Positions 2,099 to 57,543 of a stretch of DNA of 64,000 nucleotides are shown here, piece after piece (positions within the stretch are counted from its first letter, which is position 1; every line of letters starts with the position of its first letter). Where the stretch lies: assembly GCA_000435175.1 (NCBI GenBank), contig FR880046.1:47271-111270 (forward strand), given 5' to 3'. Source of the stretch: Clostridium sp. CAG:245. Lineage in GTDB: Bacteria; Bacillota; Clostridia; TANB77; CAG-508. The translations under genes were made by a program, and so were the position numbers. The notes under the pieces were generated by a model that did no database searches, had not been told where the DNA came from, and saw only the letters and a list, made by a program, of their open reading frames with translations.

Positions 2099-3578
2099 AT
2101 GAAAGACAATAGGTTATATCAAGACATAGCAAAAAGGACAGATGGCGATATTTATGTTGGTGTTGTTGGACCTGTAAGAACTGGTAAATCGACTTTCATA
2201 AAAAGATTTATGGATTTGCTAGTAATTCCAAACATAGACAATGAGTATAAAAAAGAGCGTGCACAAGATGAGTTGCCTCAAAGTGCCGGTGGCAGAACAA
2301 TTATGACTACAGAGCCAAAGTTTATTCCAAATGAAGCGGTACGGAATTACTGTTGGTGATAATATAAAGCTGAACGTAAGACTGGTTGATTGTGTTGGAT
2401 ATTTGGTTAATAATGCTATTGGATATTTGGAAGATGATATGCCAAGAATGGTAAAAACACCATGGTCAACAGAGGAAATTCCATTTGAACAAGCAGCTGA
2501 GATTGGAACTAAAAAGGTAATTCAAGAACATTCTACAATTGGAATATTGGTTACAACTGATGGAAGTGTGACTGGAATAGAAAGAGAAGATTACATAGAA
2601 CCAGAGGAACGTGTTGTAAAGGAATTAAAAGAACTAAATAAACCTTTTGTAATAGTATTAAATTCGGTAGAACCAGATTCTGAATATACACAAACATTAG
2701 CTCAAAAACTTCAAGAAAAATACGATACACAGGTAATTCCAACAGATTGTGAAAATTTAACTGTAGATAAAATTGATGAAATATTTGGCAAAGTATTATA
2801 TGAATTTCCAATAGAGCGAGTAAACATCAGTTTCCCAAGATGGGTTGATGGACTACCAGAAACACATTGGCTAAAAGAAGAATTATATGACGAAATCAAA
2901 GATGCGTTTAAAGACATAAAAATTCTAAAACAGATAGACAACCGAATAACCAAATTGCAGAATACTGAGGTAATATCAACAAGTATAATAAACGAAATAC
3001 AGCTAGGAACAGGAAGCATAAACATAACCATCAACTTATTAGATGACTTATTCTATAAGGTATTAACCGAAATTTCTGGAGTTCCAATAACAAACGAAGG
3101 TGAACTATTCTCTAGCATGATATCATTTGCAAATGTAAAGAAGGAATATGACAAAGTATCTACAGCATTGCAAGAAGTAAACACAAAAGGTTATGGAATA
3201 GTAAGCCCATCAATAGACGAATTAATATTAGAAGAGCCTGAAATGGTAAAACAAGGCACACGCTATGGAGTAAAACTAAGAGCAAAAGCACCATCAATAC
3301 ACATGATAAGAGCAGACATAGAAACAGAAGTATCTCCAATAGTAGGAAGCGAAAAACAATCACAGGAACTGGTAGAATCGTTACTTTCAGAATTCGAAAA
3401 CGATCCAAAGAAAATATGGGAATCAAATATATTTGGCAAGAGCCTGCACGAGCTAGTAAACGAAGGCTTGCAAACAAAACTAATGAAAATGCCAGAAGAT
3501 GCACAAGAAAAATTACAAGAAACATTAGAAAGAATAATAAACGAGGGAAGCGGAGGACTAATCTGCATAATATTATAA
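2099..3578 (+). CDS. spoIVA: Stage IV sporulation protein A (SpoIVA ATPase), split into ORFs 2099..2359 and 2331..3578 by an apparent single-base insertion near 2338-2345
   Basis: N-terminal fragment has the Walker A motif (GVVGPVRTGKSTFIKRFMDL) and the ELPQSAGGRTIMTTEPKF motif. The second frame continues with NVRLVDCVGY...PRMVKTPW...EAAEIGTKKVIQEHSTIG. Together ~492 aa, as in SpoIVA. Confidence 0.85.
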
Positions 3579-3979: not shown

Positions 3980-4381
3980 ACAAATCACCATTATATTTAT
4001 ATGAAGAAATTAAGAAATAATTACAAATTTATATCATACTACGTGTAATACATGTGGCAAACGTTTTTTGGAGTTTTACATATTCATTAAAAATATTCAA
4101 TATACTTTGAAAAAGAAGAAAAAATGTATGTCATAAGAAGTAGATGTCTGATTAACAGATAGAAAATAGTATCATTAATCTACTTACTTAATGATACTAT
4201 TTCATGCTTTTATTATATCAAAAGATTAAATAAAAGCAATAGTTTTGTTAAATTTTTTTAGATTTTATTTGTACATAAATAATTTTAAGTTACATTAATA
4301 TTTCAAGTAAATATACATAAAAACACTATTGTGAAACTATCATTAAGTAAGTAGATTAATGATAACACGAAAGGAAAAAAT

Positions 4382-7060
4382 ATGAAAAGTACAAAGGAAA
4401 ATAAAGGAATTACAATTATTGCATTAATTATAACAATAGTAGTTTTATTGATACTCGCAGGAGTAACCATTGATTTAGTTGTTGGAAATGACAATTTGTT
4501 TGATAAGGCAAGGAGTACACAAAAGATACAAACGGTAGCGGGAATAAAAGAAGCGCTAGAGCTTGAAAAGGTGGATATACAAGTTGAGAGTAAGACAGTT
4601 GATTTGGATAATTATTTGGAGCAGATAAGTACAGGGAAAAAGAATTATGATTTAAGTTCTAAAGAAAAAATAGATAAAAAAAATGCCGAAATAATAATAA
4701 ATGATGAACATAAATTTTTAGTAAAAGATAAAGAAAATGGAGATGTAGAAATAATATATGAAGGAATAGCAAAAGCGAGTGATTTAACAATATCTCCGAA
4801 AAATGGAACATATACGTATCCAAATAGTGGAACATTTGAAGTAACAAATAATACATCAGGAGGAGAATTAACCGTAAGTTCAGATGCTCCAAACATAGCA
4901 ACAGCAAGTATTAAAGGAAACACAATAACAGTACAACCGGGAACAACAGCAGGAAAAGCAAATATAATAGTAAGAAGTGCAGCAAGTGGAGAATACGCAG
5001 AAAATAAAGCAATACATTTAGCAACAGTAGAAAATGGAACAATAGAATTAGAAGCAATTCCATATGAGGGAGTATATGATGGACAAGCACATAATGCATT
5101 TACGAGTATAAGTATAAACCCAAGCGATGCAAAATTAGAATACTCATTAGATGGAAACGAATATAATGAAAAAATGCCAACAATAACAAATACATCAGAA
5201 TTTACAGTAACAGTAAAGGCAAATAAAGAAGGCTATAAGACACAAATAACAACAGAAACAATAAGAGTAAATAAGGAAGAAGGAAAATTAACATTATCAT
5301 CAACAGATGGAACATATACATATCCAACAAGTGGAACGTTTACAGTAAGCGGAAATACAGGAGCATTAAGTGTTAGTTCTAATAACGATAATATAGCAAT
5401 AGTAAGTATAAATGGAAATACAGTAACAGTAAAGCCGGGAACGACAGCCGGAAAAGCAACAATTACGGTAACGAGTGCAGAAGCAAACAATTATAAAGAA
5501 AAGACAGCAACTCATGAAGCAACAGTACAAAATGGAACAATAACAATAAATGCAACACCTTACACAGGTACGTACGATGGAAAAGCACACAATGCATTTA
5601 CGAGCGTAACAACTGATCCAAGTGATGCAACAATAGAATATTCAATTGATGGAGGAAGTTATTCATCGACAATACCAACAATAACGAATACTTCATCATT
5701 TACAGTAACAATAAAAGCAAGCAAAGCAGGGTACAAGACACAAACGAAAACAGAAACAGTAAAAGTAAATAAGGCAGAAGGAAAATTAACATTGTCAGCG
5801 ACGAGTGGAACAATAACATATCCAAGTAACGCAACTTTTACAGTAAGTGGAAATACAGGAACATTAAGTGTTTCTTCAAATAATAACAATATAGCAACAG
5901 CAAGTGTAAGTGGAAATACTGTAACAGTAAAATCGGGAACAACCGTGGGAAAGGCAACAATAACAGTAACAAGTGCAGAAGCAAGCAATTATACAGCAAA
6001 ATCAGCAACATATACTGCAACAGTAAATAATGGAACAATAAGCTTAAGTGCAACACCATATAATGGAACATATGATGGAAAAGCACATAATGCATTAACA
6101 AATGTAAGTGCAAATCCAAGTGATGCAAAATTAGAATATTCAATAAATGGAGGCACATATAGCACAACAATGCCAACAATAACAAACACTTCATCATTCA
6201 CTGTAACAGTAAGAGCAAGCAAGGCAGGATACAAAACACAGACAACAACACAAACAACAAGAGTAAATAAAGCAACAGGAAGCATATCATTATCATCATA
6301 TAGCGGAACAATAACATATCCGAACACTGGAACGTTTTCTATAAGTGGAAATACTGGAACTCTAAGCGTGTCATCATCTAATACTAATGTGGCGACAGTA
6401 AGTTTAAATGGAACAACAGTAATAATAACTCCTAAAAAAACAGAAGGAACAACTACTATAACAGTAAAGAGCGCTGCAACATCGAATTACAATGAAAAAA
6501 CAGTAACGTATACTGCAACAGTTAAACTTCAAACATTTACACTTGATTCAGGAATAGGATATTATGCTGATATTGACGATAATGGTAGCGTAGATGGCAT
6601 AATATTTGGGGATAGAAAAAAAGGCGCAAGTGGTTCTTGGGGAAACAGAGATGGAAATTATAGTATTTCAACTAAAACGGGACTTAAGGAATATTATATA
6701 AGTCAAACAAATTATAAAGGTGCTTTCGGAACAAAAAATGTACTGTCCGCTAAAAGTTCTGGAAATGCAAGATTTTATGTAATGGCTTTATCAGATGCAA
6801 GTAGTAGTGGTTGGGCGTGGACAGAAGCACAAAAATTTAATGGGAATGGTTGGTCAGTTCCTTCAAGAAATGAATGGGCTGCTTTTGCAGGATTGTTAGG
6901 GATAACTTCATCTAATTATCAAAGTTATGGCTTGCAAAATCGTTACTGGGGATCATATATTAATGATGATTATTCTTGGGCATGTTTATTTTATAGTGGA
7001 AGAGTTGATAGCGTATATTTTAGTGATAGTGTGCATGTTAGACTGTCTACAATGTTTTAA
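4382..7060 (+). CDS. Large surface protein with a pilin-like hydrophobic N-terminus, four Big_2 (Ig-like) plus MBG (YDG-type) repeat units, and a C-terminal DUF1566/Lcl-like domain
   Basis: 892 aa. N-terminus KGITIIALIITIVVLLILAG resembles a prepilin/class III signal but lacks Glu5. A ~170-aa unit (VSSxxPNIATASIxGNTVTVxPGTTAGKATITV ... PYxGxYDGKAHNA ... YKTQT) repeats four times. The C-terminus has W-SVPSRNEW...YWGSY...VRL, the DUF1566 pattern. Confidence 0.8.
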   Translation: MKSTKENKGITIIALIITIVVLLILAGVTIDLVVGNDNLFDKARSTQKIQTVAGIKEALELEKVDIQVESKTVDLDNYLEQISTGKKNYDLSSKEKIDKKNAEIIINDEHKFLVKDKENGDVEIIYEGIAKASDLTISPKNGTYTYPNSGTFEVTNNTSGGELTVSSDAPNIATASIKGNTITVQPGTTAGKANIIVRSAASGEYAENKAIHLATVENGTIELEAIPYEGVYDGQAHNAFTSISINPSDAKLEYSLDGNEYNEKMPTITNTSEFTVTVKANKEGYKTQITTETIRVNKEEGKLTLSSTDGTYTYPTSGTFTVSGNTGALSVSSNNDNIAIVSINGNTVTVKPGTTAGKATITVTSAEANNYKEKTATHEATVQNGTITINATPYTGTYDGKAHNAFTSVTTDPSDATIEYSIDGGSYSSTIPTITNTSSFTVTIKASKAGYKTQTKTETVKVNKAEGKLTLSATSGTITYPSNATFTVSGNTGTLSVSSNNNNIATASVSGNTVTVKSGTTVGKATITVTSAEASNYTAKSATYTATVNNGTISLSATPYNGTYDGKAHNALTNVSANPSDAKLEYSINGGTYSTTMPTITNTSSFTVTVRASKAGYKTQTTTQTTRVNKATGSISLSSYSGTITYPNTGTFSISGNTGTLSVSSSNTNVATVSLNGTTVIITPKKTEGTTTITVKSAATSNYNEKTVTYTATVKLQTFTLDSGIGYYADIDDNGSVDGIIFGDRKKGASGSWGNRDGNYSISTKTGLKEYYISQTNYKGAFGTKNVLSAKSSGNARFYVMALSDASSSGWAWTEAQKFNGNGWSVPSRNEWAAFAGLLGITSSNYQSYGLQNRYWGSYINDDYSWACLFYSGRVDSVYFSDSVHVRLSTMF

Positions 7061-55965: not shown

Positions 55966-56217
55966 ATGATAGAAATAGTATTTAAATTGGATGAGAACAA
56001 GGCGATTGCATATGACTCCGAGAACAAGGTTGGCGAATGTGATTTTGAGAAAATAGATGATATTTGGAATATAACACATACAGAAGTTGATAGTGATTAT
56101 CAAGGACAAGGTATAGCTAGAAAGTTAGTAGAAAATGTTATAGAAAATTCTCAAAAATATAATAAAAAGATAACAGCAACATGTTCATATGCAAGAAAAA
56201 TAATTGAGAAAGAATAA
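55966..56217 (+). CDS. Small GNAT-family N-acetyltransferase
   Basis: 83 aa with the acetyl-CoA binding motif YQGQGIARKLVENVIE. Confidence 0.6.
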   Translation: MIEIVFKLDENKAIAYDSENKVGECDFEKIDDIWNITHTEVDSDYQGQGIARKLVENVIENSQKYNKKITATCSYARKIIEKE

Positions 56218-56269
56218 TTTTTAATAATTAGAAAATACTTGCATATAATAAAAATGTATATTATAATAT

Positions 56270-56400
56270 ATAAAGAATATGGTGTTGGTAATAAGGCAAT
56301 ACCAAAGGAGAAAAAATTCTCAAAAAAAGTTGGTGAATCCAGCCATAAAATTGGAACTTAAAAAAGGAAGGTTAGAGTGTAAAGCTCTAATCTTTTTTTT
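56270..56400 (+). ncRNA. Candidate type III antitoxin RNA: promoter (TTGCAT-17-TATAAT, 56237..56266), two degenerate ~44-nt pseudo-repeats, and an intrinsic terminator (TTAGAG...CTCTAA + T9) upstream of the toxN-like gene
   Basis: Architecture promoter - short non-coding transcript - terminator - ToxN-family gene. Pseudo-repeats GTTGGTAATAAGGCAATACCAAAGG... and GTTGGTGAATCCAGCCATAAAATTGG... (~60% identity). A second near-identical promoter copy (TTGCAA-18-TATAAT, 56421..56450) follows the terminator. Confidence 0.35.
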
Positions 56401-56477
56401 ACAAATTTTAGAAAAATACTTGCAAACATATGTACGTATGTGATATAATGCAGAAAATGTATAAGGAGCTGGTTGGT

Positions 56478-57002
56478 ATGATTAAAAATTTACAAATTAT
56501 AAGAGTGAATACAAATTATTGCGATTATTTAAGAAAATTTGATTCAAGAGTAGCCTACAATATGAATGAAAAAGAGATTAGACCTTTTGTAGGAATATTA
56601 TTCAAGATAGAAGATTGCGAATATTTTGCACCACTATCTAGTCCAAAGTCGAAACACAAGAAAATGAAAAATACCATTGATTTTCTAAAGATAAAAAACG
56701 GTGAACTTGGAGCTGTGAATTTTAATAACATGATTCCTGTAAAAAGTGATTATTACTCTATTATTGATTTAAATCAATCAACTTTAACTCTAAATGAAGC
56801 AAAATACCAGAAACTATTAAAAGAACAATTAGCTTGGTTAAACGCAAATTATATTCAAGTAAAAGATAAATCATATAAATTATATACTTTATATAACAAA
56901 GGAAAACTGCCAGAAACCATGAGAGAAAGATGTTGTAATTTTAAGCTACTAGAAGAAAAATGTTTAAAATATACTATTATAGATAGGAGTTTACATGGAT
57001 AA
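56478..57002 (+). CDS. toxN: Type III toxin-antitoxin system toxin, ToxN/AbiQ family endoribonuclease
   Basis: Matches ToxN throughout: YCDYLRKFDSRV (ToxN YIEYLKEFDDKV), FVGILFKIEDCEYFAPLSSPKSKH (ToxN FIGIVLEIQGHKYLAPLTSPKKWH), NNMIPV, and C-terminal CCNFKLLEEK (ToxN CDFAVLEEK). Start after the AAGGAG RBS. Confidence 0.75.
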   Translation: MIKNLQIIRVNTNYCDYLRKFDSRVAYNMNEKEIRPFVGILFKIEDCEYFAPLSSPKSKHKKMKNTIDFLKIKNGELGAVNFNNMIPVKSDYYSIIDLNQSTLTLNEAKYQKLLKEQLAWLNANYIQVKDKSYKLYTLYNKGKLPETMRERCCNFKLLEEKCLKYTIIDRSLHG

Positions 57003-57543
57003 TAAAAAAAGATGCAAGTGGTGCAATATGAAGAATTCACTATATATAAAATATCATGATGAGGAATGGTGCAAACCGAACTTTGATGAGAAATATTTAT
57101 ATGAGATGCTTATATTAGAGTCTTTTCAAGCTGGACTTTCTTGGGAGTGTGTACTAAATAAAAGACAAGCCTTTGAGATGGCTTATGATAACTTTAACAT
57201 AGAAAAAGTATGCCAATATGATGATGAAAAAGTCATAGAACTGCAACAAAATAAAAAGATAATTAGAAATAAATTAAAGATAAAAGCAAGCATAAACAAT
57301 TCTAAAATATTTAAGAATATACAAAAAGAATTTGGCTCGTTCAATAACTATTTAAAGACTTTCACAGATGGCAAAACATACTATGAAATAGATAAGACAA
57401 CATCTCCAATTTCTGATGCTATCTCAAAAAACCTACAAAAAAGAGGAATGAAATTTGTAGGTTCAACAATAATATATTCATATTTACAGGCAATAGGAGT
57501 GATTATATCTCATGATAAAGATTGTTTTCTTTTCGCCCAATAG
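56995..57543 (+). CDS. tag: DNA-3-methyladenine glycosylase I
   Basis: YHDEEWCKP, LILESFQAGLSW and IIRNKLKIKASINNSK motifs. Stop codon donated by hairpin element copy 6. Confidence 0.9.
   Translation: MDNKKRCKWCNMKNSLYIKYHDEEWCKPNFDEKYLYEMLILESFQAGLSWECVLNKRQAFEMAYDNFNIEKVCQYDDEKVIELQQNKKIIRNKLKIKASINNSKIFKNIQKEFGSFNNYLKTFTDGKTYYEIDKTTSPISDAISKNLQKRGMKFVGSTIIYSYLQAIGVIISHDKDCFLFAQ

Follow-up and report, generated by a model that had tools for sequence, protein, structure and literature searches.

Type III toxin-antitoxin loci have been described as single-promoter operons (PMC5086642, PMC3401426) in which the toxin is expressed by terminator read-through only (PMC5086642), and they are identified operationally by a tandem array of short repeats upstream of the toxin gene, detected with Tandem Repeats Finder (PMC3401426, PMC8860590). 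The closest described systems are ToxIN-Bt of Bacillus thuringiensis plasmid pAW63 (PDB 4ATO; ToxI of 34 nucleotides [nt] × 2.9), AbiQ/antiQ of Lactococcus lactis (PDB 4GLK; antiQ of 35 nt × 2.8), ToxIN-Pa of Pectobacterium atrosepticum plasmid pECA1039 (PDB 2XD0/2XDD; ToxI of 36 nt × 5.5), and CptIN of Eubacterium rectale. In this study, we examined a candidate locus of this type in a 64,000-nt stretch of the genome of Clostridium sp. CAG:245 (contig FR880046.1, positions 47,271 to 111,270 of the forward strand), here called the window, whose own numbering is used throughout. With a probability of roughly 80%, we read it as a type III (ToxIN-type) locus on the chromosome of an uncultured human-gut Firmicute, with the ToxI array contracted to one full 36-nt repeat. 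The locus is an ordinary member of the ToxIN family and is unusual solely in its single-repeat array and in a promoter of its own for the toxin gene.

Among the described systems, the toxin of ToxIN-Bt is the best solved match to the toxin of the window, and the repeat units share one plan, consisting of an A-run, GGTG, a first arm of stem S2, ACC or GCC, a loop, and the second S2 arm (compared with B. thuringiensis plasmid locus L104). As in ToxIN-Bt, A-runs lie at the unit boundaries, fitting its reported A/AAAA cleavage (PMC5086642), and a terminator separates array and toxin gene. Unlike that system, the window has a period of 36 rather than 34 nt, S2 arms of TCCA/TGGA rather than GCCT/AGGC, and one repeat rather than 2.9, and its toxin is only ~33-36% identical to ToxN homologues of B. 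thuringiensis plasmids. The window locus is also chromosomal and carries a toxin-proximal promoter (here named P2), whereas ToxIN-Bt is plasmid-borne and P2 is absent at the B. thuringiensis plasmid locus examined (L104).

The AbiQ model of PADLOC matches the window toxin over its full length, and the unit of an L. lactis plasmid relative, AAAAGCGGTGAATCTCCACCATCAAGTGAGAATCAA, is strikingly like the unit of the window clade, AAAAGCGGTGAATCCAGCCATTAAATTGGAACTTAA. In contrast, protein identity to the L. lactis toxin is ~38%, the L. lactis S2 arms are CTC/GAG, and that system is plasmid-borne, its toxin starting within ~20 nt of the terminator with no promoter between the two, where the window has P2. 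An anti-phage role has been demonstrated for AbiQ and is putative for the window locus. ToxIN-Pa belongs to the same toxin family, has the same 36-nt period and shows the same layout of promoter, repeats, terminator, and toxin (PMC3401426), but differs in its single constitutive promoter, its 5.5 repeats, its AA/AU cleavage, and its location on a plasmid of a Gram-negative bacterium. CptIN likewise has the type III layout and occurs in gut Firmicutes, with few (two) longer repeats; unlike CptIN, the window encodes a toxin that matches the ToxN_toxin and AbiQ models, and its antitoxin region does not consist of two ~44-nt repeats.

The toxin gene, toxN, lies at positions 56478 to 57002 on the forward strand and is preceded by a ribosome-binding site, AAGGAG (56463 to 56468, forward strand), which was read from the sequence and is kept in relatives. 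Its product of 174 amino acids (aa) matches PF13958 (ToxN_toxin) over the entire profile (1-159/159) with an E value of 6e-49 and 166.7 bits against a cut-off of 25, and the PADLOC AbiQ model covers it with an E value of 8e-37. Comparison with PDB gave B. thuringiensis ToxN (4ATO; E 2e-22) as the best solved relative, along with P. atrosepticum ToxN (2XD0; E 3e-17), L. lactis AbiQ (4GLK; E 3e-10), and E. coli ToxN (7D8O); a search of NCBIfam with the toxin yielded no match. The open reading frame (ORF) encodes a full-length endoribonuclease toxin of the ToxN/AbiQ family. This agrees with an earlier note on the same DNA, made without database searches, that had aligned the protein with ToxN over its full length and had proposed a profile search as a check; the Pfam and PADLOC profiles put it inside the ToxN/AbiQ family and not with CptN.

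The active site of ToxN comprises T52, S53, K55, and K/R33, position 33 being an arginine in some E. coli clusters (PMC8860590). In the window protein, the stretch A51-P-L-S54-S55-P-K57 aligns with APLTSPK of ToxN, which holds T52, S53, and K55, so that T52 is replaced by serine, and R35 aligns with K33. In 28 clade members, the APLSSPK and R35 columns vary hardly or not at all. A public assembly collection contains exactly this 174-aa protein in 3701 blocks, and some of the same-species contigs carry the label human gut metagenome.

Judged by comparison with other contigs, the antitoxin of the window consists of one 36-nt unit of the ToxI/antiQ type that is well conserved. Including the A-run on either side (56322-28 and 56360-65), it occupies positions 56322 to 56365 on the forward strand, the 36-nt period itself running from ~56329 to 56364. 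The repeat unit became visible solely by comparing contigs, not from the window itself. Six long contigs with identical ToxN (L001-L006) differ from the window in the intergenic region almost only by insertions of 36 or 72 nt, and the inserted unit, GGTGAATCCAGCCATAAAATTGGAACTwAAAAAAGC, gives one, two, or three copies beside an identical toxin. Copies were counted in metagenome contigs found by the species-specific leader, together with the window, these six contigs, and the near relative L007 (ToxN 96% identical). One copy is present in the window and in two further contigs (L095 and L099), two copies in 12 contigs, and three copies in 6. Contigs with one, two, and three copies have the same ToxN (0-3 substitutions) and show no change in P2 or in the ribosome-binding site. 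A change in the copy number of antiQ alters viability and phage resistance (PMC5086642), an effect that bears on the 1/2/3 polymorphism of the window species.

A scan of one genome per species returned 80 related loci, including the window, in uncultured gut Clostridia, Bacilli, and 'Tenericutes' metagenome-assembled genomes, with ToxN 59-96% identical. Nearly all of them have an upstream tandem array with a period of 34-37 nt and 2.2-4.2 copies (consensus AAAAAAGCGGTGAATCCAGCCATTAAATTGGAACTT). Three cores were counted at 67 loci, two at 6, four at 2, one at 4, and none at 1; the single-core loci are the window, L043, L053, and the end-truncated L040, and the locus without a core, L055, is end-truncated as well. 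The tandem array expected of a type III locus is therefore found in conspecific contigs (2-3 copies) and at 75/80 related-species loci (2-4 copies). Since 36-nt arrays accompany an identical toxin in other contigs, and arrays with a period of 34-37 nt accompany related toxins in other species, the window holds one canonical ToxI unit. The earlier note had suggested that the antitoxin may be diverged or novel or that the toxin may be an orphan. Neither suggestion holds: the unit of clean arrays with two or three copies is present upstream of toxN, and it is well conserved, usually in three copies, in ~80 related species.

The unit fits a ToxI-like pseudoknot, proposed here with stem S1 pairing G56332-T56334 with G56342-C56344 and stem S2 pairing T56338-A56341 with T56352-A56355. 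A set of 110 distinct units was used to assess it; because MAFFT misplaced loop indels, the arms were parsed by script, and the formal pair count was restricted to 45 units of equal length. In the 110 units, S2 is a helix of 4 base pairs (bp), N-C-C-A with U-G-G-N, whose outer pair is U-A in 81, C-G in 26, and U-G in 3 and is never broken. The structure ..[[[...((((]]].......)))).. has 99% of cells paired on the 45 equal-length units, with the variable S2 pair UA in 35 and CG in 10 and no breaks. Its covariation score was 0.101 versus 0.050 in shuffles, none of 500 shuffles reached it, and slid controls collapsed, so that S2 is backed by covariation.

Units of L. lactis, B. thuringiensis, and Fusobacterium follow this plan as well (an A-run, then GGTG, one S2 arm, RCC, a loop, and the other S2 arm), and their S2 arms differ in sequence yet stay complementary. 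The arrays of the annotated plasmid relatives measure 36 nt × 3.1 in L. lactis (unit AAAAGCGGTGAATCTCCACCATCAAGTGAGAATCAA), 34 nt × 3.1 in B. thuringiensis (unit AAAATTGGTGTAGCCTTACCGTAGTAGGCACAA), 37 nt × 3.4 in Fusobacterium, and 38 nt × 3.2 in C. botulinum. A-runs bound every unit, in agreement with the reported cleavage specificities of ToxN-Bt (A/AAAA) and of AbiQ (A/AAA) (PMC5086642).

Upstream of the unit, a putative antitoxin promoter, P1, was read from the sequence at positions 56239 to 56267 on the forward strand (TTGCAT at 56239-44, a 17-nt spacer, and TATAAT at 56262-67), from which transcription would start near 56274. P1 aligns in position with a conserved TTGATT-17-(TGn)TATATT upstream of the arrays of relatives; the promoter scan reported an overlapping site instead (TTAATA 56221 / TATAAT 56249). 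Downstream of the unit, an intrinsic terminator is predicted at 56370 to 56400 on the forward strand, with a stem of GGTTAGAG (56370-77) and CTCTAATC (56385-92), a 7-nt loop, and a T8 tail (56393-56400). A minimum free energy (MFE) fold lengthens the hairpin to 17 bp, and the 127-nt transcript has a z score of -5.8 versus shuffles; a simple terminator scan did not report the hairpin. The terminators of relatives lie at the same position with compensatory stem changes (GATTGGAG/CTCCAATC in L042, GACTAAAG/CTTTAGTC in L078, and GACTAGAG/CTCTAGTC in L085), and on this comparison the terminator between unit and toxN is real and conserved. The layout of promoter, noncoding RNA, terminator, and toxin that had been proposed for the locus was thus recovered with all parts in order, including a strong terminator hairpin at 56370-56392, the tail of which is T8 and not T9 as first given.

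Between terminator and toxN, P2 is predicted at positions 56408 to 56449 on the forward strand. It comprises an A-rich/-35 module (56408-24), TTGCAA (56420-25), an 18-nt spacer, and an extended -10 element, TG-A-TATAAT (56441-49), and scored 10/12 matches, with the TG, in the promoter scan. Type III loci are described with one promoter, whereas a near-consensus second one, predicted from sequence, stands here downstream of the terminator. An exact TATAAT lies within 70 nt before the toxN start codon in 58/78 relatives, compared with 14.8 ± 3.4 (maximum, 24) in shuffles; in 56/78 relatives it lies 15-40 nt before the ATG, with a peak at 22-26 nt. A TTG is found at a 17-nt spacer in 34 of the 49 distinct TATAAT regions and at 18 nt in 4, while other offsets give 0-7. 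At loci without P2, the distance from the last core to the ATG tends to be shorter (median, 106 versus 125 nt). None of the four annotated plasmid relatives that were examined has P2, their toxins starting within ~15-30 nt of the terminator, and no second or internal promoter in type III systems was found in a search of the literature. P2 therefore seems to be a departure from the textbook layout that is specific to this clade. A second promoter had been called atypical, which is right for the family as the literature describes it; its conservation across the gut clade means that it is not a quirk of this locus.

Duplication of the promoter module after the terminator had also been pointed out before, and it was borne out by our search: the modules TTAGAAAATACTTGCA (56228-43) and TTAGAAAAATACTTGCA (56408-24) share the exact 12-mer AAAATACTTGCA, which occurs in the 64 kb only at those two promoter sites. 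Near-identical A-rich/-35 modules of P1 and P2 are confined to the window and the L007 lineage, and L008 keeps the P2 copy of the module and has GGAAAAAAGCTTGAAT at P1. The duplication consequently looks recent or produced by local conversion, and P2 looks older. Two other relatives, L049 and L078, have terminator-to-toxN spacers of ~228 nt, each with a strong promoter-like site, and the spacer of L049 additionally holds a short ORF with its own ribosome-binding site. These long spacers may represent an inserted small gene or regulatory element.

If the locus works like AbiQ and like the ToxIN systems of Pectobacterium and Bacillus, P1 would yield an RNA of ~125 nt, made up of leader and unit and ending at the terminator, which ToxN would cut within both A-runs flanking the unit. 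The freed 36-nt pseudoknot would bind ToxN, forming a closed protein-RNA complex in which the active site is blocked. Once transcription ceases, for instance upon phage infection, the unstable antitoxin RNA would decay, and free ToxN would cleave A-rich RNAs. The ratio of antitoxin to toxin would be set by the two promoters plus terminator read-through. From the same systems, we infer toxicity, neutralization by one repeat, the cleavage sites, the transcription starts, and an anti-phage role. A more specific proposal, which we hold only tentatively and consider rather more doubtful than not, is that the toxin of the gut clade is separately transcribed from a conserved P2 and that the ToxI array is naturally 1/2/3-polymorphic in one species around an identical toxin. 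If this is true, one 36-nt repeat would suffice as an antitoxin in nature, and the repeat number would tune the sensitivity of the system.

Several points weigh against a ToxIN-type locus with a one-repeat array. The window itself lacks the tandem array by which type III loci are recognized: Tandem Repeats Finder and a repeat finder detected no array upstream of toxN, and the 64 kb hold just one copy of the family core GGTGNNNCCRRCC. When the region in the window and the three-copy array of L007 were scanned against Rfam, all matches were at chance level and none came near the gathering score. S1 (GGU with GCC) is invariant, so covariation neither supports nor contradicts this stem. In its native context, ToxI-Pa required 2.5 repeats, and for antiQ 1.8 repeats gave viability but 0.8 did not (PMC5086642), so that a single repeat lies at the limit of what has been reported to function; earlier assays did, however, include single repeats in the set of constructs that were over-expressed in trans (PMC3401426). 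With a strong P2 (extended -10) beside a single repeat, an excess of antitoxin is hard to explain. Finally, the single-copy state could be a product of assembly collapse.

In that last case, the genome would have two or three identical 36-nt repeats like its conspecifics, collapsed to one by the assembler. We consider this unlikely, though a possibility of real weight. Near-identical repeats can be collapsed by de Bruijn assemblers at small k, two and three copies (12 and 6 contigs) are the common states in the species, and the other two single-copy contigs of the species have very low coverage (1.6 for L095 and 2.7 for L099). However, typical reads, and likewise k = 141, exceed the 72-108 nt of such an array, and two contigs assembled at k = 141 (L002 and L005) resolve two copies, so that copy number does vary in the species. 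Single-core arrays are also found in three other lineages (L043, L053, and L090). Moreover, the window contig is long, and its junctions are clean, equal to the two-copy allele minus exactly one unit. L090 (contig OLRY01010215.1) is a different relative with a window-type leader, a single repeat, and a short spacer from terminator to ATG; its toxN frame breaks after ~50 codons into unrelated sequence, which either disruption of the locus or chimerism of the contig could explain.

Loss of repeats could instead be a step in the degeneration of a decaying or orphan locus, the toxin being silenced, nontoxic, or neutralized in trans. One repeat is indeed fewer than the number reported to be sufficient in cis for ToxI-Pa (PMC5086642), and the 3' end of toxN has been remodelled, in that the ogt-like gene of L007 and L008 is missing and toxN overlaps the downstream gene tag. 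But ToxN is full length and identical to that of contigs with two or three repeats, its catalytic motif is conserved, and P2 and the ribosome-binding site are intact as in the multirepeat alleles, which makes decay improbable. The occurrence of the exact protein in 3701 assembly-collection blocks argues for maintenance, and no second ToxI core was found within the 64-kb window.

The earlier note had taken the antitoxin region for two loosely similar ~44-nt units, both starting with GTTGGTrAAT and reminiscent of the two-repeat CptI class. A novel or diverged antitoxin made of two such degenerate pseudo-repeats is highly improbable. Both stretches do share this start and end in an A-run, but an alignment of 56286-56328 with 56329-56372 does not outscore those of shuffled sequence (global p 0.24, local p 0.56), and the shared start is not kept in close relatives, which have GTTAGTCAT (L007) or GTTGGTCAT (L003 and L006) in its place. 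The first pseudo-repeat is leader, which is entirely different in most relatives, and the second contains the canonical unit, the true repeat period being 36 nt; the likeness to CptI also fails on the toxin, which is of the ToxN/AbiQ and not the CptN type.

A proteinaceous antitoxin encoded by a 54-aa ORF at 56279 to 56443, which is ATG-initiated, crosses leader, unit, and terminator, and is longer in L007 (1526-1729; 67 aa) with a repeated peptide, AVNPAIKLELKK, can be set aside almost entirely, as the ORF has no upstream ribosome-binding site and passes through an intrinsic terminator, and the variable repeat periods of relatives (34, 35, 36, and 37 nt), which would break any reading frame, together with the RNA-type compensatory pairing of the antitoxin region exclude it as a coding feature. 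We regard the ORF across leader and array as a by-product of the repeats that annotation pipelines could mis-call as a gene.

The leader of the antitoxin transcript (56274 to 56321, forward strand) is predicted by an MFE fold to form two hairpins, at 56280-56304 and at 56308-56321 (GAGAA-AAAA-TTCTC). The smaller hairpin ends 0-3 nt before the first A-run, and a hairpin occupies the same place in L007-L086. A stem of at least 5 bp is present there in 34/55 distinct leaders versus 11.5/55 in shuffles, and while its sequence varies, complementarity stays (GAGAA/TTCTC, GCTA/TAGC, GCTAC/GTAGC, and GCAC/GTGC). This hairpin may stabilize the 5' end or direct the first cut by ToxN. In most relatives (L009-L056 and others), a highly conserved leader block, AGCAATAAATTTATATAAATTGCATATAATATTATTGCT, lies 27-30 nt upstream of the first GGTG core and forms a long imperfect hairpin; the window clade (the window, L007, and L008) is without it. 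The sequence TGCATATAAT of this main-clade leader occurs with at most one mismatch in 59/73 distinct upstream regions, a conservation above the expectation for a plain spacer. It was considered as an extra promoter and rejected, there being no TTG 16-18 nt upstream, and is probably not a promoter.

The locus is flanked upstream by a small GNAT acetyltransferase gene (55966 to 56217), the intergenic region between it and toxN being 260 nt, and downstream by tag, a 3-methyladenine glycosylase gene (56995 to 57543), whose start overlaps the toxN stop by 8 nt (56995-57002). In L007 and L008, which represent the closest species, an ogt-like methyltransferase gene with a PCHRV motif (2289-2849 and 3009-3554, respectively) sits between toxN and tag. 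The window is without this gene, and the overlap with tag changes the last ~8 residues of ToxN (..YTIIDRSLHG versus ..YAEGRIENNV), which lie beyond the Pfam domain. It may be that toxN is cotranscribed with these DNA-alkylation repair genes. The window neighbours are common to L007 and L008 only, and elsewhere the cassette stands in unrelated contexts. L003 and L006 (both at 4230-4901) have an extra 223-aa gene with a weak HTH_19 match just 3' of tag, which the window, L001, L002, L004, and L005 do not carry.

GC content is uniform, so the locus is not a compositional island. Of two scans of viral contigs for the unit, the first had 0 matches, and the 14 of the second were single matches due to chance, none of them close to a ToxN; phage and plasmid records hold distant ToxN relatives only (≤45% identity).

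The locus adds a very abundant gut branch to the ToxIN family, at most ~45% identical to annotated plasmid and phage ToxN in the collections searched. Repeat-finder screens for type III systems will miss single-unit loci such as this one. Of modest interest are the 1/2/3-repeat polymorphism around an identical toxin and the conserved toxin-proximal promoter in the gut clade; otherwise, the locus would be a routine defence or addiction module. If the single repeat and P2 are real and active, the natural series of one, two, and three repeats with an identical toxin would test two assumptions about type III systems: the need for several repeats, and the setting of the antitoxin-to-toxin ratio by one promoter together with a terminator.

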